Program-made: the position numbers and the translations under genes | DNA from: an uncultured Bacteroidia bacterium | GTDB taxonomy: Bacteria; UBA4055 | Assembly: GCA_964648295.1 (NCBI GenBank) | Contig: CAZYNH010000001.1 | Location: forward strand, 197,180 to 261,179 | Direction: 5' to 3' | Length of the DNA: 64,000 bases | Notes under the pieces: model-generated | The model's database searches: none | What the model was told of the DNA's origin: nothing | The model's input: only the letters and a program-made list of their open reading frames with translations | Shown: piece by piece, positions 10,378 through 51,724 of the stretch | Numbering within the stretch: the stretch's first letter is position 1 | Layout: each line of letters opens with the position of its first letter

Positions 10378-11487
10378 TTGGAAATGACAATGATCGAAAA
10401 ACTTAAAATATTTAATTACAGAAGCCTTGAAAAGCTGGAATTGAATTCCCTGCTTAAAGTTAACCTGATAACCGGCAAGAACAACACCGGGAAATCAACA
10501 ATTCTCGAAGCCCTTGCTTCTTTTGCCGCAAAGGGTGATCTGAAGGTTTTATTCGAACTGCTCGAGGAGAGAGGCGAAGTTTATAAGCAAAATGAAATTG
10601 ATAGTAATCCAATAGAATACAATATTAAAACATTTGCATCGTTATTTACGAAAAGAGATGATAAGAGAAAAATAGATATTAAAGTCAGCGATGAGAATAA
10701 AGAGACTACATTATCCTTAAGGATAGTAAAGTATAGAGAAGAAAAAATACAGGGTGCAAATTCTGATGTGCCGAGAAAGAAAATCATTCTTGAAAATGGC
10801 AGCGGTGAAAATATTCTCGACTATCTTATGGGATTAGAAATCAAGAACGGCGGCGGCAGCTATATTTTACCATTGGATGAAGAAAAAATAAACAGGTTTG
10901 GTTTTAAAGGATTTAGTGAGCCTAAAAATTTTCAGTTTATCAGGCCGCGCGGATTAGAAACAAATATAAATCTGTCGTTATGGGATAGTATTGTTCTTAC
11001 TTACAAAGAGCAGTCCGTAATTGAAGCTTTAAGAATTATCGAGCCGGAAATTCATAAAATAACCTTCAAAGAAGACGGCGCGAACAACAGAAAAGCCGTA
11101 ATCAAATTATTGAACGATCCGGTTCTTATTCCTTTGCAAAGTATGGGTGACGGTATAAACAGGATACTTACGATTATTCTTGCAATGGTGAACTCCGATA
11201 ACGGTTATTTGCTTATAGACGAATTTGAAAACGGTCTGCATTATTCGGTTCAGGAAAAATTGTGGGAAATAATTTTCAGCTTATCTGAAAAATTAAATGT
11301 ACAGGTTTTTGCCACCACTCACAGCGAAGACTGCATTTCCGGTTTTGAAAAAATTATAAATAAGCCCGGCTTGGAATACAAAGGTAAATTGATCCGGCTT
11401 GAAAATGACGGCGGTTTTATAAAACAGGTGGAATTCGACAAAAACGAACTAAAAATTGCTTTTGAAAATAATATCGAAGTCAGATAA
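10378..11487 (+). CDS. AAA_21-type ABC ATPase (OLD/PARIS AriA-like). Likely true start is ATG 10384 or 10390
   Basis: Walker A motif (GKNNTGKST), Walker B/D-loop (LLIDEFENGLH) and an H-loop (ATTHSED). The stop TAA overlaps the ATG of the next gene. Confidence 0.8.
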   Translation: MEMTMIEKLKIFNYRSLEKLELNSLLKVNLITGKNNTGKSTILEALASFAAKGDLKVLFELLEERGEVYKQNEIDSNPIEYNIKTFASLFTKRDDKRKIDIKVSDENKETTLSLRIVKYREEKIQGANSDVPRKKIILENGSGENILDYLMGLEIKNGGGSYILPLDEEKINRFGFKGFSEPKNFQFIRPRGLETNINLSLWDSIVLTYKEQSVIEALRIIEPEIHKITFKEDGANNRKAVIKLLNDPVLIPLQSMGDGINRILTIILAMVNSDNGYLLIDEFENGLHYSVQEKLWEIIFSLSEKLNVQVFATTHSEDCISGFEKIINKPGLEYKGKLIRLENDGGFIKQVEFDKNELKIAFENNIEVR

Positions 11488-12113
11488 TGGGATCGAAAAA
11501 AGGATTAAGCAAAATACTACTCGTAGAAGGTAAAAATGATCAGCATGTTGTATGGTCGCTCTGCAGCAAGTTTAATATTCCGGAAAATTTTGATGTAGTT
11601 GATTGCGAAGGAATTGATAAACTAATTGAACAGATCCCTGTAAGATTTAAACAATCCGGCATCGAAACTATAGGTGTGATAATTGATGCAGACACCGATC
11701 TAAATGCTGCATGGCAAAAAATCAGATCGGTCTTTTTAGCTCAGAGCTGTCCGGTTCCCGAAAACATCCCCTCTGACGGTCTGATATGTGAAAATTCCGG
11801 CGGAATAAAAACCGGAGCTTGGATCATGCCTGATAATAATTTGAACGGAATGATCGAGGATTTCATTTCGTTTCTTATTCCCGAAAACGACAGCCTTTTG
11901 CCTATTGCAGAATCAACTCTTCAAAGTATTGAGCTTAACAATCTTAATAAATATCCTTTAAACCATAAATCAAAAGCGAAAATTCATACATGGCTTTCGT
12001 GGCAGGAAGTACCGGGCACACCTTTGGGGCTCGCAATCACAAAAAGATATCTCACGACCGACAACGATGCCTGTTTAAAGTTTATTACCTGGCTAAAAGA
12101 TCTTTACAAGTAA
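11487..12113 (+). CDS. Toprim-like nuclease-domain protein (DUF4435/DUF3226-like, OLD-family Toprim)
   Basis: Motifs ILLVEGKND and IIDADTD match a Toprim E...DxD signature. Translationally coupled to the upstream ATPase gene. Confidence 0.6.
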   Translation: MGSKKGLSKILLVEGKNDQHVVWSLCSKFNIPENFDVVDCEGIDKLIEQIPVRFKQSGIETIGVIIDADTDLNAAWQKIRSVFLAQSCPVPENIPSDGLICENSGGIKTGAWIMPDNNLNGMIEDFISFLIPENDSLLPIAESTLQSIELNNLNKYPLNHKSKAKIHTWLSWQEVPGTPLGLAITKRYLTTDNDACLKFITWLKDLYK

Positions 12114-19534: not shown

Positions 19535-21184
19535 ATGCCTGATAAAAAAATGATAGATTTATTGCGTAGCCTCATCCAGACTTGGGAAAACGAGGTTATT
19601 GAGTTCAAGGAAGCGAATGATAATTTTCCGACTTCAGATATCGGGAAGTATTTTTCTGCTCTGTCGAACGAGGCTAACTTGAGAGGTAAAGATCGTGCGT
19701 GGCTTGTGTTCGGTGTTCATAATAAAACCCGAAAGATTGTCGGTACTGATTATAGGATGGAACCGGAAAGGCTTCAGAGTCTTAAGATGCAGATTTCGCA
19801 GAATACTGAACCTACTGTTACTTTTCGTAATATTCATGAAGTATTTACGGACAGTTTGAGGGTGATTTTGTTTGAAATTCCTTCTGCGCCGATTGGTATT
19901 CCTATTTCATGGAACGGGCATTATTATTCTCGCTCCGGTGAAAGCTTGGTTTCTCTCGGCTTGAATAAGCTCGATGAGATCAGAAAGCAGACTTCGGCAT
20001 CTGATTGGACGGCAAAGATAATTGATGAAGCTACGGTTGAGCATCTTGACCCTGATGCTATTGAAAAGGCTCGTGAGGCTTACGGAGAAAAATATTCAAA
20101 CCGCTTTACAGAATCAGAAATAAAAAAATGGTCTGTGCCTGTTTTTCTCGACAGGGCAAGGCTGACTATATCGGGTAAGATCACAAGGACTACTTTGATC
20201 CTTCTCGGTAAAAAAGAATCGTCGCATTTTCTTCTTCCCTATCCGTCTCAGATCACATGGAAACTTGAAGATAAAGAAAGAGCTTACGAACATTTCGCGC
20301 CGCCTTTTTTATTGAGTACTTCCGAGCTTTATCAAAAAATAAGAAATTATCAGATCAGAATTCTGCCTGAAAACAGCCTGATCCCCGTTGAAGTTTCCAA
20401 ATATAAACAGAGAGTTATTCTTGAAGCTCTGCATAACTGTATAGCTCATCAGGATTATACAAAAAATTCCAGAATTATCGTAACTGAATATGCGGATAAA
20501 CTTTCTTTTGAGAATGTAGGCAGTTTTTATGAGGGCTACCCTGAAGATTATATCGCCGGGACAAAAACACCGCACAGTTATAGAAATTCTTTTCTTGCTC
20601 AGGCGATGGCCGAGTTAAAAATGATAGACACTTTAGGCTATGGCATTCATGAAATGAATACGGAACAAGCGAAAAGATTTTTTCCGTTGCCTGATTATGA
20701 TCTTTCGGAGCCGGGAGTTGTCAAAGTTTCAATATACGGAAAAGTATTCGATCCTGCTTACAGCAACCTGCTCATACAGAATCCCGATCTTGCGTTAGAG
20801 GATATTATAGCTCTTGACAGAGTTCAGAAAAAGCTTCCTTTGACGGATGAAATGATAAAAAGGTTGAGGAACGCACAGCTTATAGAAGGCCGGAAGCCGA
20901 ACTTTCACATTTCGCTAAAAGTCGCGAAAGTGACAGACAAGAAAGTTGACTATATAAAAACCAAAGGCTTTGATGATTCATACTGTAAAGACTTGATACT
21001 TGAGTTCATAAAAAAATGGGGTGAAATATCCCGCAAACAAGCTGAAGATCTTCTTTGGGATAAATTGCCTGATATTTTAGATGATAAAGCTAAATTCAAT
21101 AAGGTTACTTATATTTTGCAGAGTCTGAAAAAAGATAACTTCATATTTTTAGGAAAAGCTAAAAAATGGAAAATAAATTTATAA
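19535..21184 (+). CDS. Schlafen/AlbA_2 DNA-binding domain + HATPase_c_4 domain protein (putative ATP-dependent transcriptional regulator)
   Basis: N-terminal 'divergent AAA/AlbA_2' motifs (EFKEANDNFP..., AWLVFGVHNKT). The C-terminal HATPase_c_4 N-box is EALHNCIAHQDY. Confidence 0.75.
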   Translation: MPDKKMIDLLRSLIQTWENEVIEFKEANDNFPTSDIGKYFSALSNEANLRGKDRAWLVFGVHNKTRKIVGTDYRMEPERLQSLKMQISQNTEPTVTFRNIHEVFTDSLRVILFEIPSAPIGIPISWNGHYYSRSGESLVSLGLNKLDEIRKQTSASDWTAKIIDEATVEHLDPDAIEKAREAYGEKYSNRFTESEIKKWSVPVFLDRARLTISGKITRTTLILLGKKESSHFLLPYPSQITWKLEDKERAYEHFAPPFLLSTSELYQKIRNYQIRILPENSLIPVEVSKYKQRVILEALHNCIAHQDYTKNSRIIVTEYADKLSFENVGSFYEGYPEDYIAGTKTPHSYRNSFLAQAMAELKMIDTLGYGIHEMNTEQAKRFFPLPDYDLSEPGVVKVSIYGKVFDPAYSNLLIQNPDLALEDIIALDRVQKKLPLTDEMIKRLRNAQLIEGRKPNFHISLKVAKVTDKKVDYIKTKGFDDSYCKDLILEFIKKWGEISRKQAEDLLWDKLPDILDDKAKFNKVTYILQSLKKDNFIFLGKAKKWKINL

Positions 21185-22095: not shown

Positions 22096-23472
22096 ATGAA
22101 TGACATGAACAGGATAGAAACTCAGTTTAAAGATAAAATCAAAAGTTTTCTAAACCAGAATTCGTTCAACACATGGATCAAACCGGTAAAGATCGTCAAT
22201 ATTGACGGAGAGAACATTTCTTTTCAGGTGCCGTCAAAGGTGCATATCGACTATATCAAAGGACAGTACAGGTCGGTTTTCGAAAAAACGCTTAAGGAGA
22301 TACTCTCAAGCGAGAATATCAATATTAAATTTTTGATCGACTCTGATACCGACTTTAATTTTGAGACTAAAACAGGGACGGAAGTCGCAGTAAAAAAACC
22401 AAAAGAGATATCAAAGGGAAGAATAGCCCCGTACAAGGAAACTTCTTTAAACCCGAAATACACTTTTGAGAATTTTGTCATGGGTAACGGCAATGAAACG
22501 GCCTATGTGTCCTCTCTTCAGGTCGCCCAGAATATAAAAAAGACCCAGTACAATCCGCTTTTGATCTTCGGAGGAGTGGGCCTCGGAAAAACGCATCTTG
22601 TTTCCGCGATCGGGAACCATGTTTTTAATCATGATCCCAATATGAAAATACTCTATATGACATCGGATATATTCGTGTTCCAGATAATCAACCACATAAA
22701 AAACAAAACTATTGATGATTACAAAGCTTACCTGAGAACGAAAGACCTTATCATAATCGACGATATCCAGTTCTTCGCCAAAAAAGACAAGAGCATGGAA
22801 GAGCTTTTCCATATCTTCAATTACATTTATAACAGCGGGGGCCAGATAGTCCTTACTTCAGATTTCCATCCCAATGAGATACACGAGCTTGACGACAGGC
22901 TTAAATCAAGGTTTAAAATGGGTTTAATAACAGATGTTAGGGCTCCGGATCTTGAGACGAGGGCGGCTATAATCCGACTCAAGGCGGAAGAAATAAGTTT
23001 CAACCTCGATGATGATATCGTTATGTTCATTGCCAATAATATAAACACGAATGTCAGAGATCTGGAGGGTGCGGTAAAGAAACTGTATTTCCACCATTCG
23101 CATTTTAACAAAGAGATAAGTATCGGTAAGGCGAAAGAAATATTAAAAGAACTTATCACATCAAAAAAATCGACCCTTAATATTGATAAGATACAGGATA
23201 TAGTCTCTGAATTTTTCTCCATCCCTAAAGATCTTTTAATGAAAAAAACAAGAACGAAAGAAGTGGCAGAAGCAAGGGCTGTCGCAATGTATCTCTGCAC
23301 AACTCAGCTTAAAGCTACTACCACAAGTATAGGCGTGCATTTCGGCGGAAGGGAGCACAGCACAGTATCACATGCCGCGGCCAAAATACAGAAAAAACTG
23401 AGCGCGAAGGATCCTGAAACTGTCAAAATGATAGACGAGATACTTAATGTGATTAACTTATCAACATGTTAA
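22096..23472 (+). CDS. dnaA: chromosomal replication initiator DnaA
   Basis: AAA+ Walker A (GGVGLGKTHL), sensor and box VII motifs, and a C-terminal DNA-binding domain (KEVAEARAVAMYL...). Followed by dnaN. Confidence 0.95.
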   Translation: MNDMNRIETQFKDKIKSFLNQNSFNTWIKPVKIVNIDGENISFQVPSKVHIDYIKGQYRSVFEKTLKEILSSENINIKFLIDSDTDFNFETKTGTEVAVKKPKEISKGRIAPYKETSLNPKYTFENFVMGNGNETAYVSSLQVAQNIKKTQYNPLLIFGGVGLGKTHLVSAIGNHVFNHDPNMKILYMTSDIFVFQIINHIKNKTIDDYKAYLRTKDLIIIDDIQFFAKKDKSMEELFHIFNYIYNSGGQIVLTSDFHPNEIHELDDRLKSRFKMGLITDVRAPDLETRAAIIRLKAEEISFNLDDDIVMFIANNINTNVRDLEGAVKKLYFHHSHFNKEISIGKAKEILKELITSKKSTLNIDKIQDIVSEFFSIPKDLLMKKTRTKEVAEARAVAMYLCTTQLKATTTSIGVHFGGREHSTVSHAAAKIQKKLSAKDPETVKMIDEILNVINLSTC

Positions 23473-23668
23473 CAGGAAGGTTTTGTGAATAATTTTTATG
23501 ACAGGTTATACACCCTGTATTCAAAAGATATAAACACGATCTCTGACAGATCCGGTTTTATATCTTTTTATTATTCCGAGGATTATAGAGTTATTCACTT
23601 ATCGCCGGAGTTAATATTTAACAATAGGATTATTTAAATAAATTAAATTTATAAAAAAGGAGAAAAGA
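23473..23668. promoter_or_regulatory. candidate oriC segment (dnaA-dnaN spacer) with DnaA-box-like 9-mers and an AT-rich DUE
   Basis: tgtgaataa at 23484-23492 is the reverse complement of TTATTCACA. ttatacacc lies at 23506-23514 and ttattcact at 23591-23599. Each is within 1 mismatch of TTATNCACA. The 3' part of the spacer is very AT-rich (ttaatatttaacaataggattatttaaataaattaaatttataaaaaa). Confidence 0.45.
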
Positions 23669-24787
23669 ATGATATTTTCGACCCTTAAATCGAACCTGAT
23701 GGCACAGTTGTCGCTTATAAATCCGATACTGCCGTCTCACAGCGCAAAACCGATAACGGAGTGTGTGATACTGTCTCTTAAAGAGAACGAACTGACCATT
23801 ACCGCCACAGATATTTCCGTTACTCTGGTAAATAAGATAGAGGTCAACGGAGTAGAGAACGGAACGGTCGTAGTACACGGTAAGAAATTTATAAATATAA
23901 TTAAAAGTCTGCCGGATGTTGTACTTACCGTTAAAAAGGACGGCGGTGTTGTGAAGATCATCTCCAATAATATAAAATTCGAGCTGGCGGTTACAGAGGA
24001 TTATGAAGATTTCCCGGCCACCCCGAAAAGCCTTTCGGGTAATTATATGGCAATAGATTCACTCAAACTGAAGAATTATATTGAGAAGACTGTTTTCACT
24101 GTATCTCCCGACCAGTTAAGGGCTGTTCTGACAGGCGTGCTGTTCTCGCTCAAGTTAAATCAGCTTACAATGGTAGCAACGGACAGCGTGAGGCTGGTTA
24201 AGCTGGATGACAAGAGCATCAGATATGAAGGCGAAGATACAGATATGATACTCCCCGCCAAATCACTTCAGATAATTTCGAACGCGATAGACAGAAATGA
24301 GGAAACAATGATTTATTTCGAAGAAAATTATGTTGAGTTCCGGTTTGGCAGCGTAACGATATTCTCGAGACTAATAAACGGAAAATATCCCGCATACCAG
24401 GCAATAATACCCGCTAATAATCAGCTGAAAGCGAAATTCGATAAAAACACAACGATCTCCGCGATAAACAGGGTAGCTCTCGCATGCAACCCGGTCACAA
24501 AACTGATAAAATTCAATCTTGAAGCAGGGCAGCTGCTAATCAACACCGAGGACAGCAATTCGTCATCAAGAGCTGAGGAGAGTATCCCATTAGATTATGC
24601 GGGGGAAAAAATGCTTATCGGGTTCAATGCCGGAAAAATTGTCGAGCTTCTTAAAAATATAAGCACAGAAATGGCGCTTATGGAGATCAATAACGGAAAA
24701 AAACCGGTAATTATAAAACCCTACGAATCGACAGAAAGTTATGAAATCATGATGCTTCTGATGCCGTCATCCGTAGAAAATTCATAG
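23669..24787 (+). CDS. dnaN: DNA polymerase III beta sliding clamp
   Basis: Position after dnaA. Three-domain clamp length of about 370 aa with typical N-terminal sequence. Confidence 0.9.
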   Translation: MIFSTLKSNLMAQLSLINPILPSHSAKPITECVILSLKENELTITATDISVTLVNKIEVNGVENGTVVVHGKKFINIIKSLPDVVLTVKKDGGVVKIISNNIKFELAVTEDYEDFPATPKSLSGNYMAIDSLKLKNYIEKTVFTVSPDQLRAVLTGVLFSLKLNQLTMVATDSVRLVKLDDKSIRYEGEDTDMILPAKSLQIISNAIDRNEETMIYFEENYVEFRFGSVTIFSRLINGKYPAYQAIIPANNQLKAKFDKNTTISAINRVALACNPVTKLIKFNLEAGQLLINTEDSNSSSRAEESIPLDYAGEKMLIGFNAGKIVELLKNISTEMALMEINNGKKPVIIKPYESTESYEIMMLLMPSSVENS

Positions 24788-24802
24788 GATCGCCGGAAAA
24801 GA

Positions 24803-25906
24803 ATGAAACTTAAGAAAATAGAGCTTTCGAATTTCAGGAACTATGAAAAACTGGAGCTGGAGTTTAAAAAGAACATAATATGCTTAACCGGGCTCAACGG
24901 ACAGGGAAAGACCAATATTGCGGAAGCTGTATCTGTTTTGGGTCTGCTCAACAGTTTCAGGACATGCAGTTATTCGGAAATGGTCAGGTTCGGAGGCGAC
25001 TGTTTTTTTATTAAAGGGGAATTTACGAATACGGACAAAAGAGATATAGAGGTCAGTATAAGCTTTGACGGCGCTACGAAAAAGATCATGTATCAGAACA
25101 AAAGGGTATTGAGATTTTCCGAGATATGGGGAAAAATACCGGTGATCTATCTTATACCTGACGAAAGTATAATAACGACAGGCCCGCCCAACGCGAGACG
25201 CGATTTTTGCGACAGGCTTATTTCAATGACAGATCCCGGGTATTTGGCGCTGCTGAACGAGTATTCGGCGGTCGTTAAACACAAGAACAGGGTTATATCC
25301 GATATCCGGTCAGGCGACAGTTCCGCCGCCGACATGATTAGTGTCTATAACACAAAAATAGCAGCCGCGGGATCTGAGATATTTTTGAGAAGAATGAAAT
25401 TTATATCTGATTTTCTGCCCTGTTTTAAAGAGATTCTTCTTTTTATTTCCGACGGTTTGTATGAAGGTAACATAGCCTATGAATCGATAATGGAAAAAGA
25501 CGATTATAAAAATGACCTTTCACGGCTTTTAAACGAACAAAAAACGCAGGAGATCAGACGGGGCGTATCTTTCCTCGGGCCTCACAAAGATGATCTTGAA
25601 TTCGAAATAAACGGTAAGTCTTTGAGAAAGTTCGGCTCAAAAGGGCAGCATAAACTATTCCTCGTGGCTCTTAAACTGGCGGGAACCGAGTATATAAAAT
25701 CGGTAACTGACGAATATCCGATATTCATACTTGACGATCTCTATTCTGAGATAGACGAGAATAAAAGCCTGAAAGTAGCAAGGATTCTGGACAAGGATAT
25801 CCAGACTTTTATTACAACAAGCAACAGCAGAATAGTCGACCAGCTTGACCCGAATGTTTCGGAGCTGTTCATGGTGGAGAACGGAAAATGCGCGGCGGTG
25901 TTCTAG
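24803..25906 (+). CDS. recF: DNA replication/repair protein RecF
   Basis: SNFRNY and GLNGQGKTN Walker A motifs, an SMC-like signature and a C-terminal FILDDLYSEID Walker B. Confidence 0.9.
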   Translation: MKLKKIELSNFRNYEKLELEFKKNIICLTGLNGQGKTNIAEAVSVLGLLNSFRTCSYSEMVRFGGDCFFIKGEFTNTDKRDIEVSISFDGATKKIMYQNKRVLRFSEIWGKIPVIYLIPDESIITTGPPNARRDFCDRLISMTDPGYLALLNEYSAVVKHKNRVISDIRSGDSSAADMISVYNTKIAAAGSEIFLRRMKFISDFLPCFKEILLFISDGLYEGNIAYESIMEKDDYKNDLSRLLNEQKTQEIRRGVSFLGPHKDDLEFEINGKSLRKFGSKGQHKLFLVALKLAGTEYIKSVTDEYPIFILDDLYSEIDENKSLKVARILDKDIQTFITTSNSRIVDQLDPNVSELFMVENGKCAAVF

Positions 25907-41601: not shown

Positions 41602-42003
41602 TTATACTGTCCAGTTCTCAATTAATAATCCTTCAACTTTAGAAAATTCTCTTATATTATTAGTAACAAGAATTCCGCCTTGAGCCATTACAGTTGAAGA
41701 AATAATAAGATCGTTAGGACCTATAGGTTCGCCTGCTTTTTCCAGATTTGATCTTGTTATAGAATAATATACAGAAGCTTCATCACCAAATTCGATTATT
41801 TCATAAGGTTCAAGAAAAGCATTTATTTTTTTTAAATTATCTTCGATTAGACTGCTTTTTCTTGCACCGTGTAATAGTTCTGCCTTCACGATAGAAGGTA
41901 TTTTAATTTTATCAGGACTTATTGTTTTAATTTTATTTGCTATCTTTTCGTTTGTACCTTTCAGGAAATATATACAGATATTCGTATCCAGATAATAATT
42001 CAT
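41602..42003 (-). CDS. vapC: type II toxin-antitoxin system VapC-family toxin (PIN domain)
   Basis: PIN acidic residues (YLDTNICIYF..., D...E...D pattern). 133 aa. Overlaps the upstream antitoxin. Confidence 0.85.
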   Translation of the reverse strand: MNYYLDTNICIYFLKGTNEKIANKIKTISPDKIKIPSIVKAELLHGARKSSLIEDNLKKINAFLEPYEIIEFGDEASVYYSITRSNLEKAGEPIGPNDLIISSTVMAQGGILVTNNIREFSKVEGLLIENWTV

Positions 42004-42236
42004 AATTTTTCCCTTTCGCTATCACCGTAGAAATCAGCTGGTCTTTCCGCAACCATTGTTTCGTCTTTGATTGAACCGAAAAGATTGAAATATCCTTTCG
42101 GGTATTCTTTTTCTAATGAACGCTGAATGTTTAATCCCACCCATTTCGAAATGGAAACATGCTCTTTCTTTGCGGCTTTTTCGACCTTTTTGAGCGTTTC
42201 TTCATCAATATAAAGCGATATCTGAGGCATTATCAA
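42000..42236 (-). CDS. vapB: antitoxin (VapB/RHH-like), 78 aa
   Basis: Small ORF overlapping the vapC start by 4 nt. Charged DNA-binding-like N-terminus. Confidence 0.7.
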   Translation of the reverse strand: MIMPQISLYIDEETLKKVEKAAKKEHVSISKWVGLNIQRSLEKEYPKGYFNLFGSIKDETMVAERPADFYGDSEREKL

Positions 42237-44018: not shown

Positions 44019-44155
44019 CTCATCCTCCCGTAAAGTCCGCGGAAATCTAAAGGAAAATCAGGGGATTCGCAAATTGGACTGTATTTACACTTGTAATTTA
44101 CTTTGAAAAGTAATAAACAATAATTATCTTATTTAATAATAAATCTTTCAGAAAA

Positions 44156-44587
44156 ATGGACAAACTGACAAAAGAGCAACGAAGAAAAAACATGCAGGCA
44201 ATTAAATCGAAAGGAACAAAGATTGAAGTTGCGCTTGCGAAAGCATTATGGTCAAAAGGATACAGGTACAGAAAAAATAATAGAACAGTTTTAGGCACAC
44301 CGGATCTTACTTTTAAGAAATTTAAAATTGCGGTTTTTGTTGACAGTGAATTTTGGCACGGAAAAGATTGGAAAGAAAATAAAAATAAGATAAAATCAAA
44401 TCAGGAATTTTGGTACAATAAGATTGAAGCCAATATTAAAAGAGATAAGAAAGTAAATAAAGAACTGAAAAAACAGGGTTGGAAAGTTCTCAGATTTTGG
44501 GGAAAAGAAATTGAGAAACAGCTGGAACAATGTGTTTTAAAAATTATTACAGTTTACAAAAGTAATTCGAAAAGATTTTTAATTTAA
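44156..44587 (+). CDS. vsr: very-short-patch-repair endonuclease
   Basis: GTKIEVALAKALW..GYRYR, TPDLTF and VFVDSEFWHG motifs. Confidence 0.9.
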   Translation: MDKLTKEQRRKNMQAIKSKGTKIEVALAKALWSKGYRYRKNNRTVLGTPDLTFKKFKIAVFVDSEFWHGKDWKENKNKIKSNQEFWYNKIEANIKRDKKVNKELKKQGWKVLRFWGKEIEKQLEQCVLKIITVYKSNSKRFLI

Positions 44588-44628
44588 TACTTGCCTTTGT
44601 TCATAAAAGACCGTAATTTTGGACAATA

Positions 44629-46143
44629 ATGTCAAAAAGTACGGAGTTCATTATGGAGCAGTCTTTAGGAGAGATTATAAAACAACGGAGAATTGAGCTG
44701 GGGTATCCATTAAAAACAGTAGCGTCATCTATAAATGTAGATACCTCATTATTAAGTAAAATTGAAAAAAACGAAAGAAAAATCAATATTGAATGTGTAA
44801 AGCCGTTGGCGGATATATTGTCAATAGACGAAAATACATTGTTAAATTATTATTACTCGACAAGAATTATTGAAGAACTTAAAGAATATCCGAATTATTC
44901 GGATGTGTTGACTATGGTAAGTGAAAGTTTGGCTACATATACTGTAGAACAAAGCCTTTTCAAAGTATCAGACGATTGGAGAAATAAAGAATTTTCAAAT
45001 CCGAATGCGACTATCAGAATCGGATCAATGTTCTCAGGTATTGGGGCAATCGAATATGCTTTTAAACGATTGAATTTAAAAAGTGAAATAGTTTTTGCAA
45101 GTGATATAGATCCTCATGTAAAAAAGAGTTATTTTGCCAATTATAATATCAATGAAGAAAACTGGTATGATGATGTTTGTAATATTGACGGGAACAAATT
45201 TAAATTTAAAATAGATCTTCTCGTTGGCGGTAGCCCATGTCAGTCGTTTTCAATGGTTGGGAAAAGGAAAGGATTTGACGATACAAGAGGAACTTTGTTT
45301 TATGAATTTGCTCGTGTAATAAAAGAAAGTCGGCCAAAAGTATTTATCTATGAAAACGTCAAGGGTTTAGTTACTCACGACAACGGGAATACTTTTGAAA
45401 CAATAAAAAATACTTTTGATGAGCTTGGATATAAGTATTTTTATCAGGTATTAAATTCCAGAGATTATGGAATCCCTCAAAATCGTGAAAGGATATTTGT
45501 TATTGGTTTCCGTGATCCGTCTGTTGAATTTAATTTTCCGATACCAATTGAATTGCAAAGAAAAATGCAGGATTTTTTGGAAGATTTTACTTCAAGCGAA
45601 TACTATCTCCGTGAAAAGGGAGTTAAATTTGTTACGAGTTCAAAAAATAAATTAAAGAGATATACACAAATAAATGGTGATGTAGCATTATGCCAAAAGG
45701 CAAATCAGCAGTTTAACTGGCACGGCGACTTCGTATTTGAAAAATATGATTCTGAAGATTTTGATGAGTTTGTTTTTGACGTAAACAAAGTTGAAGAAAA
45801 ATATTATCTTTCAGAAAAAGTGAGAGATTATGTACTTAAAACCGGAACGAAAACATTCAAGACATCGGTTAAAACGGATCTTGAAGTTGCAAGGCCGATA
45901 CTTCAAACTATGCACAAGATGCATCGTGCAGGAGTAGACAATTATGTGACACATAATAAAGGTAGAATCAGAAAACTGACACCCAGAGAATGTTTAAGAC
46001 TCATGGGATTCAGAGATGATTTTAAAATTGACGTCAGCGATACACAAATGTACAGACAGGCCGGAAACAGTATAGTTGTAGATGTTCTTATAGCATTATT
46101 AAAACAAATGGATATCACAAGATTTGGAGAATGGGTATCATGA
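44629..46143 (+). CDS. DNA (cytosine-5)-methyltransferase with an N-terminal XRE-type HTH domain
   Basis: HTH (LKTVASSINVDTSLLSKIEKNERK). Motif I FSGIGA, motif IV GGSPCQSFS, motif VI ENVKGL and motif X QAGNSIVV. Confidence 0.9.
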   Translation: MSKSTEFIMEQSLGEIIKQRRIELGYPLKTVASSINVDTSLLSKIEKNERKINIECVKPLADILSIDENTLLNYYYSTRIIEELKEYPNYSDVLTMVSESLATYTVEQSLFKVSDDWRNKEFSNPNATIRIGSMFSGIGAIEYAFKRLNLKSEIVFASDIDPHVKKSYFANYNINEENWYDDVCNIDGNKFKFKIDLLVGGSPCQSFSMVGKRKGFDDTRGTLFYEFARVIKESRPKVFIYENVKGLVTHDNGNTFETIKNTFDELGYKYFYQVLNSRDYGIPQNRERIFVIGFRDPSVEFNFPIPIELQRKMQDFLEDFTSSEYYLREKGVKFVTSSKNKLKRYTQINGDVALCQKANQQFNWHGDFVFEKYDSEDFDEFVFDVNKVEEKYYLSEKVRDYVLKTGTKTFKTSVKTDLEVARPILQTMHKMHRAGVDNYVTHNKGRIRKLTPRECLRLMGFRDDFKIDVSDTQMYRQAGNSIVVDVLIALLKQMDITRFGEWVS

Positions 46144-47117
46144 AAATAGAAATTGGAAGAGAAGAGTTAAATGTTATTGACGCTAAAGAAAAAATTACAA
46201 TTGCAGACTCATTTGTTGTAAGACAAAATAAAATAGGCACCGGTAACGGAGAAGCAAAACTTTATGTAGGAAATGATAATGAGAGTTTAAGAAATTTTTT
46301 TGGCAGTACTGGATTTACGGTTAAATGTTTTTTACTCAAAAAAGACCTGCTGAAGTATATGGACGAAACAAAAGCAGAATATCTCAAGCCTGAACAGCCG
46401 TATAATAATAAAGAATTATTACCGGGCCTGTGGCAGACAAGAAAAGAAAAAATTGAAGGATTGCCTGATAAAATTGAATTTGAAATATATGAACAGACAC
46501 AGATTGCGGGACCAAGGATATATGTAAAATCATCTGATAAAGCTTACGGTCTGATTCGAGAACTATCTTTACCAAATATCACTTATATTTCAGTTATAAA
46601 ATTAGTAGACTCCCAATCAGGCGATTTGTATTATTATTTCAGGCTCTTTGCAGATTATTTCGGTGAAATTGAACATCCATATTTATTTGAGAAAGAAAAA
46701 GAGCAAATTGAAGAAAAAGTAGAAGATAAAGTTGAAAGAGTTCAGCTGTATAAAGCTAGAATTGGTCAGGGTGAGTATAGAAAAAAATTACTCGAAATGT
46801 GTCCATTTTGCCCAATTACCATGATTTCAGATGACAGACTTCTGATAGCAAGTCATATAAAACCTTGGGTAGAATCTGATGAAAAGGAAAAGATAGATCC
46901 GTTTAACGGGTTGATGCTGACACCAACTTTTGACAGGTTATTCGACAGAGGTTTTATGTCTTTTACAGATGATAAGAAACTTATTTTATCACCTTTTTTA
47001 TCAAACATGACTTATTCAAAACTGGGAATATCCGACAGCAAGACCTATTCGTTATTACCTATAGAAGGTCGAGAAGAATATATGGAGTATCATAGAAAAG
47101 AGATTTTGAAAAAATAA
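46140..47117 (+). CDS. HNH-family endonuclease (putative restriction endonuclease)
   Basis: CPFCP...ASHIKPW...NGLMLTPTFDRLFDRGFMSF matches the HNH_2-type motif. The start overlaps the MTase stop (ATGA). Confidence 0.7.
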   Translation: MKIEIGREELNVIDAKEKITIADSFVVRQNKIGTGNGEAKLYVGNDNESLRNFFGSTGFTVKCFLLKKDLLKYMDETKAEYLKPEQPYNNKELLPGLWQTRKEKIEGLPDKIEFEIYEQTQIAGPRIYVKSSDKAYGLIRELSLPNITYISVIKLVDSQSGDLYYYFRLFADYFGEIEHPYLFEKEKEQIEEKVEDKVERVQLYKARIGQGEYRKKLLEMCPFCPITMISDDRLLIASHIKPWVESDEKEKIDPFNGLMLTPTFDRLFDRGFMSFTDDKKLILSPFLSNMTYSKLGISDSKTYSLLPIEGREEYMEYHRKEILKK

Positions 47118-47204: not shown

Positions 47205-48284
47205 ATGAGAGAAAGGACCATAATAAGAGTATCAGCAATTGATTTATTTTGTGGAATTGGTGGGTTGTCATTTGGATTAAAGCAAGCTGGAATAAAAGTC
47301 AAAGCTGGTATTGATATAGATAAGACCTGTAAATATGCTTTCGAAACTAATTGCGATTCAAAATTTATTAATGAGGATGTAACTAAAATTAATGGTAAAG
47401 ATTTACAATTATTATATAAAAAAAATGAAATAAAAGTATTGACAGGTTGTGCTCCATGCCAGCCGTTTTCTTCATATACATATAAAGATGATAAAAAAAT
47501 TGATAAAAGGTGGCAATTGCTTTACGAATTTATTAGATTAATCAAAGAAACTAAACCTGATATTGTATCAATGGAAAATGTACCAACACTTTTAAAATTT
47601 AAAGAGGCACCAATATTTAAAGAATTTCTTGAGAGTCTTGAAATGGAAGGTTTTTATGTGAATTATCAAATCGTTTATGCACCTGATTACGGTATTCCAC
47701 AAAAAAGAAAAAGACTTGTATTGCTTGCCTCAAAATTTAGGAAAATTGAGTTGATTCCGCCGACTCACTTAGCCAATAGTTATTTAACAGTAAGAGACGC
47801 TATTGGGCAACTTGAAAAGATATCTTCTGGAGAATTCTCTCGGAGTGATTTTATACACAGGGCATCAAAATTATCTGAAAAGAATTTGAAGCGAATACAG
47901 CAATCTAAACAAGGCGGGAGTTGGAAAAAGGATTGGGATGAAAAATTGAAATTGAATTGTCATCAACAGGATAAAGGTAAATCTTATGTAAGCATTTATG
48001 GAAGGATGAAGTGGGATGAGCCCTCTCCAACAATGACAACTTTTTGTACGGGAATAGGTAATGGACGTTTTGGTCATCCTGACCAAGACAGAGCTATTTC
48101 TTTAAGAGAAGCAGCGATACTTCAAAGTTTTCCTTATGATTATAAGTTTGTTGATAAAGCTGAAAATTTACATTTTAGGAATGTTTCTAAACACATAGGA
48201 AATGCCGTTCCTCCAAAGCTGGGAGAAGTAATTGGGAAAAGCATTATTAACCATTTAAAGGGAGTTAAACATGGCAAAAAGTAA
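47205..48284 (+). CDS. DNA (cytosine-5)-methyltransferase (second)
   Basis: Motif I LFCGIGG, motif IV CAPCQPFS, motif VI MENVPTL and motif X GNAVPPKL. Confidence 0.9.
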   Translation: MRERTIIRVSAIDLFCGIGGLSFGLKQAGIKVKAGIDIDKTCKYAFETNCDSKFINEDVTKINGKDLQLLYKKNEIKVLTGCAPCQPFSSYTYKDDKKIDKRWQLLYEFIRLIKETKPDIVSMENVPTLLKFKEAPIFKEFLESLEMEGFYVNYQIVYAPDYGIPQKRKRLVLLASKFRKIELIPPTHLANSYLTVRDAIGQLEKISSGEFSRSDFIHRASKLSEKNLKRIQQSKQGGSWKKDWDEKLKLNCHQQDKGKSYVSIYGRMKWDEPSPTMTTFCTGIGNGRFGHPDQDRAISLREAAILQSFPYDYKFVDKAENLHFRNVSKHIGNAVPPKLGEVIGKSIINHLKGVKHGKK

Positions 48285-49350
48285 ATTTACAGAAGAAAAA
48301 ATTGAACAAATTTTAAAACAAGTCAGAGAAAAGTCTAGATTATATGACTATAGAACAAAAGATTATCCATTTGAAGTTATCTCTACAAAATTTGGTGATG
48401 AAAATGATCTAAGTTGTTCGCTTTATGTACCTGATTATCAGAGAGAATTTGTTTGGAAACCAGATCGGCAGTCAAAATTTATTGAGTCTGTTTTGCTTGG
48501 CGTACCATTGACACCTTTTTTAGTTTCAGAAGATACAGAAACTAGTAGGTTGGAAATAATTGACGGTTCTCAAAGAATTAGAACATTGATTGCTTTTTAT
48601 GAAAATAAATTACGTCTTAGAAAGTTGGAAAAATTAACCGAAATAAATTCAGCAAAATTTAAAGATCTACCACAAAAACTGCAGAATTATATAAAAAATA
48701 GGGACTTTAAAGTAATAGTTGTAGAAAACACAGAAAAAGATATAAGGCAAGATATTTTTGAGAGGATAAATACAACTAGTGAAAAATTAACTGATGCAGA
48801 AATACGAAAAGGTTCATATTCTGGAAAATTCTATGATATGGTACTTGAATTGAAGGAGGATTTAGAATTTATAGAAATATGTCCTATAACAGAAGAAAAA
48901 GAAAGAAGAGGTGAGTATGAAGAACTAATACTTAGATTTTTTGCATACAAGGATAGATATTTAGATTTTAAGCATGATGTAGCGATTTTTCTAGATGATT
49001 ATCTTGACGAAATGAATGAATCAGATTTTGATAAAGAAAGTTATATAAATGAATTCAAACGAACTATAAATTTTATAAAAACATATTATCCGTTTGGCAT
49101 ACGTAAAGACAATAACGCCAAAAGCACACCGAGGGTTCGTTTTGAAGCTATAGCAGTTGGCACTTATTTAGCCATAAAAGAACAACTCAATACATTAAAG
49201 CCCAATTTGGAATGGTTAGATTCTGAAGGGTTTAGATTGCAAACCACATCTGATTCAAGCAATAATCCTTCTAGACTTAAAAATAGAATTGAGTTTGTAA
49301 GAGATGGATTGTTAGGAAAACTCAATAATGATAGATTAATAAATGGATAA
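48271..49350 (+). CDS. DUF262 (ParB/GmrS-like NTPase) domain protein
   Basis: IIDGSQRIRT (a variant of DGQQR) and FERINTTSEKLTDAEIRKG motifs. Overlaps the upstream MTase by 14 nt. Confidence 0.8.
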   Translation: MAKSKFTEEKIEQILKQVREKSRLYDYRTKDYPFEVISTKFGDENDLSCSLYVPDYQREFVWKPDRQSKFIESVLLGVPLTPFLVSEDTETSRLEIIDGSQRIRTLIAFYENKLRLRKLEKLTEINSAKFKDLPQKLQNYIKNRDFKVIVVENTEKDIRQDIFERINTTSEKLTDAEIRKGSYSGKFYDMVLELKEDLEFIEICPITEEKERRGEYEELILRFFAYKDRYLDFKHDVAIFLDDYLDEMNESDFDKESYINEFKRTINFIKTYYPFGIRKDNNAKSTPRVRFEAIAVGTYLAIKEQLNTLKPNLEWLDSEGFRLQTTSDSSNNPSRLKNRIEFVRDGLLGKLNNDRLING

Positions 49351-50029
49351 TACAAAACAAGATTTCGAAAATCGAATGGAAGAAATAGAAAATTATTTTT
49401 TGTTCTTAACGATTTTTGATGAAGAAGAAACGAGATTGTATTATAAAATTGAGAATGAGTTTGTGAGGGAAAAAATTCAATTTCAATTTCAAACAACTTT
49501 ATTAGCTAACGGTTTTTTGATTTTATATAATTTAATTGAATCAACAATAAGAAATTCAATAATAGCTATTTATAAAAAAGTAAAGGCAGAAGAACTTAAT
49601 TACAAAGAGTTGTCCAATAATTTACAGAAGCTATGGATAAAACAAACAACAGACAATTTGAAAGAAGGTAATTATAGACCAGATACTCTCCGGCAATGTG
49701 TCTATAATCTTGTTGATGAAGTTTTAAAAAACGAAACAATAATGTTTTCAGAAGATAAAATGGATTTCTCTGGTAATCTTGATGCAGATAAAATCAGAGA
49801 CCTTGCTAATAAAATTGGATTTGAGACATCTCAAAATGGAAGAAATCTTGTAGAGATTAAAAATAAAAGGAATCGTCTTGCTCACGGTGAGCAGACTTTT
49901 TATGATGTTGGTAAAGATTTTTCAGTAAAAGAATTACATGATTTTAAAAAAGAAACTTTCAGTTATCTTTATGATGTTATAGATAAAATTGAGAGATATA
50001 TAAGAGATGAAAATTTTAAAAATAAATGA
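49343..50029 (+). CDS. HEPN-domain protein (MAE_28990/MAE_18760-like)
   Basis: The RNRLAHGE (Rx4HG) motif near the C-terminus. Overlaps the DUF262 stop by 8 nt. Confidence 0.65.
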   Translation: MDNTKQDFENRMEEIENYFLFLTIFDEEETRLYYKIENEFVREKIQFQFQTTLLANGFLILYNLIESTIRNSIIAIYKKVKAEELNYKELSNNLQKLWIKQTTDNLKEGNYRPDTLRQCVYNLVDEVLKNETIMFSEDKMDFSGNLDADKIRDLANKIGFETSQNGRNLVEIKNKRNRLAHGEQTFYDVGKDFSVKELHDFKKETFSYLYDVIDKIERYIRDENFKNK

Positions 50030-50236
50030 TTGTTTTGTATTTTTCTCATAGAAGATAATAATTTGAAATACTATAAAAACACCACCTACGCTCCCATTCG
50101 GGAATTCGGTGGTTCGGTTGTAATTTAAATAGAAAGTTCGTCAAAATCAATATTCAACTTCCCGTTTGACATCTCACTCTCTTTTGAGTAATTTACATCT
50201 GACGGATATTTAAAGTTTTAAAATAAGGAGTCGGCT

Positions 50237-50803: not shown

Positions 50804-51724
50804 TTGCAGGAAAAGTGCAATTTGGAGAGCGGTATAATGGAAAAGAAAGAGATCGTTGAGTTTGATGAGAATGTGATCAGGGACAGGATATATTCGATCC
50901 GCGGATTTCAGGTGATGCTGGACAGAGATCTGGCGGAGCTCTACGGGGTGGATACAAGGGTATTAAAACAAGCAGTAAAAAGAAATGCGGATAAGTTCCC
51001 GTCTGATTTCATGTTTAGCCTGAATAATAAGGAAATCAGCTTTATGGTGTCACAAAATGTGATACCATCGAAACGATCGCTAGGAGGATCAATTCCGTTT
51101 GCTTTCACAGAACATGGCGTAGCAATGCTGTCAACTGTTCTTAAATCTTCAAAAGCTACAAAAATCAGTATATTGATTATACGCGCTTTCGTAACTATGC
51201 GTAGGTTTATTCAATCAAATGCTCGATTGTTTAGCAGGATAGACAATCTTGAACTGAAGCAGTCAGATACAGATAAAAAAATTGAAAAAATTCTCGGGGC
51301 AATGGAAAGTGTGGATCTTAAGCCGGTGCAGGGAATTTTCTTTGAAGGTCAGATATTCGATGCATACAATTTCATTTCAGATCTGTTCAGAGACGCGGAA
51401 AAGTCCATCCTTATCGTAGATAATTACATTGACGATTCTGTTCTGATTCATCTGACAAAGGTAAAAGCGGGTGTATCAGTCAGAATATTAACAAGATATG
51501 TGACGGATCAATTCAAGCTTGATGTAATGAAATTCGAGGCTCAGTACTTTCCGGTCGAGGTAAAAGTGTTTCCGCACTCGCACGACAGATTCATAATAAT
51601 TGACAGGCGCGATGTTTATCATGTAGGCGCATCTTTGAAAGATCTCGGCAAGAAGTGGGTCGGATTCTCTAAATTCGGTACGAAAGCCATAGACATTTTA
51701 GGCAGACTGGATGAGATTGATTAA
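50804..51724 (+). CDS. ORF6N (KilA-N-like) domain protein
   Basis: The N-terminal IYSIRGFQVMLDRDLAELYGV...LKQAVKRN...FPSDFMF ORF6N signature. Confidence 0.75.
   Translation: MQEKCNLESGIMEKKEIVEFDENVIRDRIYSIRGFQVMLDRDLAELYGVDTRVLKQAVKRNADKFPSDFMFSLNNKEISFMVSQNVIPSKRSLGGSIPFAFTEHGVAMLSTVLKSSKATKISILIIRAFVTMRRFIQSNARLFSRIDNLELKQSDTDKKIEKILGAMESVDLKPVQGIFFEGQIFDAYNFISDLFRDAEKSILIVDNYIDDSVLIHLTKVKAGVSVRILTRYVTDQFKLDVMKFEAQYFPVEVKVFPHSHDRFIIIDRRDVYHVGASLKDLGKKWVGFSKFGTKAIDILGRLDEID

Follow-up and report, generated by a model that had tools for sequence, protein, structure and literature searches.

A three-gene cassette on the + strand of a 64,000-nucleotide (nt) stretch of DNA, hereafter the window, encodes a C5 cytosine DNA methyltransferase, a DUF262 protein, and a HEPN protein (positions 47205-50029). 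The window comes from an uncultured Bacteroidia bacterium (GTDB UBA4055; GenBank assembly GCA_964648295.1, contig CAZYNH010000001.1, positions 197,180 to 261,179 of the forward strand). The trio is one instance of a predicted defence cassette that is widespread and horizontally mobile, and it lies in a defence island of low G+C content. Its architecture has been in the literature since 2013, and in 2022 the two-gene core proved active against phage T4 in the form of the system PD-T4-2, so the window holds a new copy of a known module. Arguing largely by analogy with characterised relatives, we consider with moderate confidence that the trio is a mobile defence cassette with a PD-T4-2-type core, which probably couples the logic of restriction-modification to a ribonuclease (RNase) output. 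The genes and their junctions are as follows.

47205-48284, + strand: C5 cytosine DNA methyltransferase (359 amino acids, aa), first gene of the cassette, recognised by Pfam, PADLOC, and motifs
48271-48284, + strand: 14-nt overlap of the methyltransferase stop and the DUF262 start, read off the sequence
48271-49350, + strand: ParB-DUF262 protein with a helical, ParBDB-like C-terminal part (359 aa), predicted nucleoside triphosphatase (NTPase) and DNA sensor, recognised by PF03235
49343-49350, + strand: 8-nt overlap of the DUF262 stop and the HEPN start, ATGGATAA, read off the sequence
49343-50029, + strand: MAE_28990-family HEPN protein (228 aa), predicted RNase effector, recognised by PF18737 and PF18735

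The three genes form one co-directional arrangement, that of a three-gene operon, and are probably co-transcribed, judging from the overlaps of their reading frames. An earlier note, made from the sequence alone, had described a DUF262 gene that lacks DUF1524 and overlaps by 8 nt a separate gene for a 228-aa HEPN protein bearing RNRLAHGE; each of these details proved exact.

The three gene products

The cassette methyltransferase matches Pfam DNA_methylase (PF00145, E = 5.3e-68) and the PADLOC model MTase_II (3.4e-100), and it keeps FCGIG, PCQ, ENV, and QKRKR as motifs I, IV, VI, and VIII. Among C5 methyltransferases of differing specificity, the target-recognition region is usually less conserved than the catalytic core. 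Here the part between motifs VIII and IX (aa 180-290; 47744-48074), presumably the target-recognition region, is more conserved than any other part of the enzyme among the 48 complete cassettes described below, at 63.5% identity versus 55 to 61% for the core, with boundaries that are approximate. That this region is so well conserved points to a single, fixed specificity to which the sensor is matched.

The DUF262 protein matches a single Pfam family, GmrSD_N (PF03235, E = 9.3e-29). Its sequences QREFVW (57), DGSQR (98), and FERIN (163) represent the motifs QRxxxW, DGxQR, and FxxxN and vary little or not at all among 67 orthologues. An AlphaFold2 model (pLDDT, the predicted local distance difference test, 81) consists of an alpha/beta N-terminal domain and a helical C-terminal domain. 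A Foldseek search of the PDB with this model returned ParB/Noc CTPases (prob 0.99), SspE (6jiv), and BrxU as top matches, while a PDB search by sequence gave a marginal match to BrxU only (E = 0.13). Profile, all three motifs, and ParB/Srx-like fold agree in identifying a DUF262/GmrSD_N ParB-like NTPase. Among PADLOC models, the protein matches NsnA (1.3e-52, residues 53-341) and PD-T4-2_A (PDLC04027, 2.3e-40, residues 54-309). NsnA is composed of a ParB-DUF262 domain and a ParBDB DNA-binding domain and has been proposed to be a DNA sensor (Li et al. 2025; PMC12065111). On its sequence, the window protein is of this same predicted two-domain sensor type. It is not a truncated GmrSD scaffold, since the alignment with NsnA spans both domains.

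Neither the DUF262 protein nor the product of the downstream gene has a DUF1524/HNH match at E <= 0.1, the feature by which a type IV enzyme of the GmrSD/BrxU kind would be recognised. No nuclease family matches the C-terminal half of the DUF262 protein, and the cassette holds no recognised DNA endonuclease domain; the REBASE-derived PADLOC model REase_II ("Type II restriction enzyme," PDLC03418) matches the DUF262 domain only (5.7e-15). This last match favours the multi-pronged scheme of Anantharaman et al. (2013), in which the methyltransferase and the DUF262 protein would be a restriction-modification pair, with DUF262 itself the DNase, and the HEPN protein a second-line suicide RNase. The restriction-modification proteins would hold the HEPN protein inactive until phage anti-restriction factors neutralised them and freed it, much as in PrrC-EcoprrI. 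We consider this scheme quite improbable for the cassette. In the DUF262 proteins that have been studied, DUF1524 cleaves and DUF262 serves as NTPase and sensor (PMC10952713), whereas here DUF1524 is absent and the C-terminal half aligns with the ParBDB DNA-binding domain of NsnA. Furthermore, stand-alone DUF262-HEPN pairs function, as in PD-T4-2, or persist without a methyltransferase.

The HEPN protein matches PF18737 (HEPN_MAE_28990) at E = 4e-28 over residues 3-224 of its 228 (99.5 bits against a cutoff of 26.8) and also PF18735 (RiboL-PSP-HEPN) at 2e-8 (34.8 bits against a cutoff of 28.4). RNRLAHGE occupies aa 176-183, with the R-x4-6-H motif RNRLAH at 176-181; R176, H181, and G182 are invariant in 77 homologues, and N177 is kept in 74 of the 77. 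Profile and motif together bear out the assignment to the HEPN family that had been made from the letters. There are 244 detectable homologues, for which NCBI uses the name "MAE_28990/MAE_18760 family HEPN-like nuclease." The public gene call puts the start at Met12, giving 217 aa; the N-terminus MDNTKQDFENRK (49343-49375) is conserved in 26 homologues, which supports the longer, 228-aa start that overlaps DUF262 by 8 nt. No PADLOC model, PD-T4-2_B included, matches the window HEPN protein, and a PDB sequence search returned no solved relative. To our knowledge, all characterised HEPN nucleases are RNases, and by analogy with them this protein is most likely an RNase and the effector of the cassette.

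Co-conservation among relatives and the proposed mechanism

We scanned for relatives with the HEPN protein as the starting point, taking one genome per species, and kept 80 loci from 201 relatives; every open reading frame (ORF) of the 80 was then compared by phmmer with the window proteins as queries. The loci span Bacteroidota, Ignavibacteriota, Bacillota, Campylobacterota, Gamma- and Deltaproteobacteria, Cyanobacteria, Planctomycetota, Acidobacteriota, and others. In 78 of the 80, the HEPN gene is immediately preceded by a DUF262 ORF in the same orientation, and in the other two the HEPN gene sits at a contig edge. The pairing is thus not due to chance, and co-conservation of the two genes is near-absolute. 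The 8-nt overlap between them recurs in most close relatives and in most methyltransferase-linked loci.

In 48 of the 78 loci, DUF262 is in turn directly preceded by an orthologue of the cassette methyltransferase, with an overlap of usually 14 or 8 nt. Where the DUF262 protein is at least 44% identical to that of the window, the methyltransferase is directly upstream in 42 of the 43 loci with enough upstream sequence, and the 43rd (locus L052 in our numbering) has a close C5 methyltransferase adjacent on the downstream side. Within this clade, an adjacent C5 methyltransferase (43/43) is obligatory. The 48 complete cassettes average 59% identity to the window in the methyltransferase, 56% in DUF262, and 45% in HEPN, and the identities co-vary, with r = 0.80 between methyltransferase and DUF262 and r = 0.81 between DUF262 and HEPN. 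Strict linkage, overlapping frames, co-divergence, and a conserved specificity region together argue that the methyltransferase works with the sensor and is not a passenger.

We infer from these features that restriction-modification logic is the most economical reading of the cassette. The methyltransferase would mark host DNA at one fixed sequence, and the DUF262 protein would be an NTP-driven DNA sensor of modification status, as the analogy with GmrSD, BrxU, SspE, and NsnA suggests. On meeting a non-self status, most likely DNA without the cassette's own 5-methylcytosine (5mC), the DUF262 protein would release or activate a HEPN dimer, which would cleave RNA (tRNA, rRNA, or mRNA) and stop translation, leading to growth arrest or abortive infection. 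It has been suggested that methylase-linked DUF262 proteins target non-modified DNA (PMC12065111). More specifically, the methyltransferase-linked clade may be a true restriction-modification system with a non-DNase arm, in which lack of 5mC is sensed and the HEPN RNase is switched on; this we put forward tentatively, as a serious possibility that falls somewhat short of probable. In that case, the conserved specificity region of the methyltransferase and its presence in all 43 loci would be signs that writer and reader have adapted to each other.

Several observations weigh against this account. Of the more distant DUF262-HEPN pairs, about 20 have sufficient upstream sequence but no methyltransferase directly upstream, though two of these 20 (L052 and L078) have a C5 methyltransferase adjacent downstream. 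Together with the methyltransferase-free PD-T4-2, the distant pairs that lack a methyltransferase imply that the DUF262-HEPN core is not universally methyltransferase-dependent. On the side of the effector, a Foldseek search of the PDB with the HEPN protein gave nothing significant (best E = 0.34), and the one good structural match was to a further MAE_28990 protein, itself a predicted structure. The approximate boundaries of the target-recognition region also count here, and no biochemistry of PD-T4-2 or of a methyltransferase-linked cassette was found in the literature searched. Finally, the characterised DUF262 sensors GmrSD and BrxU answer to modified DNA, which favours a type IV logic (PMC10952713).

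Under such a type IV-like logic, to which the GmrSD-like scaffold of the earlier note would correspond, DUF262 would sense foreign modified DNA and trigger the HEPN protein; the modification could be hydroxymethylcytosine (hmC), its glucosylated form (glc-hmC), or methylation with a different specificity, for example. The methyltransferase would then be no self-marker. It would be a separate passenger or have some other function, for instance guarding against a restriction enzyme encoded nearby. GmrSD recognises glc-5hmC; BrxU recognises 5mC, 5hmC, and glc-5hmC; and Dazbog has been linked to methylated DNA (PMC10952713). PD-T4-2, which has no methyltransferase, came from a selection on T4, a phage with glc-hmC DNA, and many of the distant pairs, largely cyanobacterial, stand mostly alone amid housekeeping genes. 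For the window cassette we nevertheless regard this logic as unlikely, if by no means negligible. In the clade defined above, the methyltransferase is adjacent in 43 of 43 loci, usually shares an overlap with the DUF262 frame, co-diverges with DUF262, and is best conserved in its specificity region; a passenger would not be kept so tightly across phyla. An effector that senses 5mC would also be at risk of self-targeting next to an enzyme that writes 5mC. We retain restriction-modification logic with an RNase output as our reading of the methyltransferase-linked cassettes.

HEPN is the fastest-evolving gene of the three and is occasionally split (L009, 10001-10690; L013, 10001-10696; L057, 10001-10693), as would be expected of a costly effector. 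In these loci, and in L003 (9154-10008) and L053 (8528-9040), HEPN or DUF262 genes are split or truncated beside intact neighbours, which suggests occasional inactivation of effector or sensor. Pairs of DUF262 and MAE_28990 HEPN genes, which RefSeq names routinely, are also carried by RefSeq plasmids of Escherichia coli, Salmonella, and Klebsiella and by a P2-like phage. Two of these mobile copies have a C5 methyltransferase nearby: phage P2_4B2 (L082; NC_049387.1, 30104-31979) has a short C5 methyltransferase gene in the vicinity, and a Klebsiella pneumoniae plasmid copy (L084) has a convergent one. A further copy of the pair lies on an E. coli IncF plasmid (L083).

Carriage on plasmids and a P2-like phage, effector genes that are broken now and then, tight and translationally coupled gene overlaps, and the frequent occurrence of HEPN proteins as toxins would all suit a selfish addiction module, with HEPN as toxin and DUF262 as antitoxin or regulator, maintained by post-segregational killing and with no primary anti-phage role. 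We think this very improbable, given that the homologous PD-T4-2 measurably defends its native host against phage and that the cassette lies in a defence island beside a restriction-modification system and the candidate defence system PDC-S05. Addiction and defence are, moreover, compatible and not mutually exclusive.

Genomic surroundings

The cassette forms the end of a block of six co-directional + strand genes, from Vsr to HEPN, in which G+C content is 28 to 33% (~44.1-50.0 kb) versus ~43 to 47% in the flanks. The first three genes lie outside the cassette.

44156-44587, + strand: Vsr (TIGR00632, 1e-46)
44629-46143, + strand: C5 methyltransferase fused to a helix-turn-helix (HTH) domain (Pfam/PADLOC/NCBIfam)
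46131-47117, + strand: HNH_2 endonuclease (Pfam/PADLOC/NCBIfam)

These genes (44156-47117) are a conventional type II restriction-modification system in the same island, which therefore holds two C5 methylases and one Vsr. They were rejected as parts of the cassette because their co-occurrence with it among the 80 loci is merely sporadic. Just beyond the low-G+C block is a gene for an ORF6N-domain protein (50804-51724) that matches the PADLOC candidate system PDC-S05 (2e-111) and has weak NsnC/MkoC-like similarity in its C-terminal part (6.5e-5). As a fourth component of the cassette it was likewise rejected, since it accompanies only one of the 80 loci (L037) and lies outside the block.

Searches for a regulatory or antitoxin RNA and for a tRNA integration site turned up neither an Rfam hit above noise nor a tRNA gene, and scans for promoters and terminators gave nothing beyond background level. 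A search for repeats flanking the island returned a single weak candidate, an imperfect 18-nt direct repeat (15/18; TTGTAATTTACTTTGAAA at 44091-44108 and TTGTAATTTAAATAGAAA at 50118-50135), which could be an insertion scar or a chance match in AT-rich DNA.

Elsewhere in the window, dnaA, dnaN, and recF follow one another (22096-25906), which indicates that the window adjoins the chromosomal replication origin. An AAA_15/AAA_21 ATPase and DUF3226 gene pair (10378-12113) and a Schlafen AlbA_2 + HATPase_c_4 protein (19535-21184), the latter in a second low-G+C stretch (17-22 kb), may be further defence genes. A PIN-domain gene and its 76-aa upstream partner (41602-42230, - strand), ~2 kb upstream of the island and past radical-SAM and MarC genes, are likely a toxin-antitoxin pair.

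Relation to described systems

The triad of HEPN, ParB-like, and DNA methylase genes is listed in Table 1 of Anantharaman, Makarova, Burroughs, Koonin, and Aravind (2013; Biol Direct 8:15), the work on which Pfam PF18737 is based. Their MAE_28990 operon joins the same HEPN family with ParB-like (DUF262) and DNA methylase genes, and the window cassette shows no architectural difference from it. That description was purely computational and made a general proposal only, namely, multi-pronged restriction-modification plus RNase, in which HEPN RNases linked to restriction-modification are a second line of defence, with PrrC as the analogy. The two-gene core is represented by PD-T4-2 from E. coli ECOR65, which was selected on T4, is annotated "DUF262, HEPN" (Table S1), and confers protection from T4 both in its own host and in heterologous ones (Vassallo 2022). 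DUF262 systems without DUF1524 are in fact established in PD-T4-2, Menshen, and Dazbog (PMC10952713, PMC12065111). The earlier note was therefore right about domain identities and about co-conservation, which extends to the C5 methyltransferase within the clade defined above, and it overstated novelty in presenting the locus as an unusual swap of effector into a GmrSD-like scaffold.

With DUF262 plus HEPN validated as phage defence in PD-T4-2, the mechanistic questions are how infection is sensed and what the HEPN protein targets. The methyltransferase-linked trio, which has been kept together in many phyla, apparently with one fixed methylase specificity, offers a tractable model in which to ask whether a DUF262 sensor can read a missing methyl mark and convert it to an RNase response. 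If so, RNA cleavage and abortive infection would follow directly from methylation-based discrimination of self from non-self. The residual interest of the locus thus lies in its obligate methylase of conserved specificity, which makes methylation-gated RNase defence directly testable. For annotation, the trio is best called as one system and not as an orphan methylase followed by two hypothetical proteins.

Among described systems, PD-T4-2 shares the two-gene DUF262 + HEPN core. Its A protein is homologous to the window DUF262 protein, as the PADLOC match shows, and PD-T4-2B, compared through its HHpred profile matches, hits PF18735 (97.8%) and PF18737 (96.9%), the two families that the window HEPN protein matches. 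PD-T4-2 differs in having no linked methyltransferase and a shorter operon, with 1540 bp for both ORFs. Menshen (NsnABC) provides the best defence-database match of the DUF262 protein in NsnA, with both domains in common; however, the window locus lacks an adjacent NsnB ATP-binding cassette (ABC) ATPase and lacks NsnC, and its effector is a separate HEPN protein. Membership in Menshen was accordingly rejected, given that no NsnB is nearby and that the only NsnC-like signal is the weak one in the non-adjacent ORF6N/PDC-S05 gene. GmrSD and BrxU have a similar N-terminal DUF262 ParB-like NTPase domain with DGxQR; the window protein lacks their DUF1524 His-Me nuclease, and the cassette has a separate effector gene and a linked methylase, which type IV enzymes lack. 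SspABCD-SspE likewise joins a modification module to a DUF262 NTPase that acts as sensor and governs a nuclease effector, but it uses phosphorothioate and a DUF1524 nickase, whereas here a single methyltransferase would write 5mC, the predicted effector is HEPN, and sensor and effector are separate polypeptides. PrrC-EcoprrI, finally, is the conceptual model for HEPN proteins linked to restriction-modification, with a HEPN RNase embedded among DNA modification and restriction genes; PrrC differs in having its own ABC ATPase, a type I restriction-modification partner, and no DUF262.

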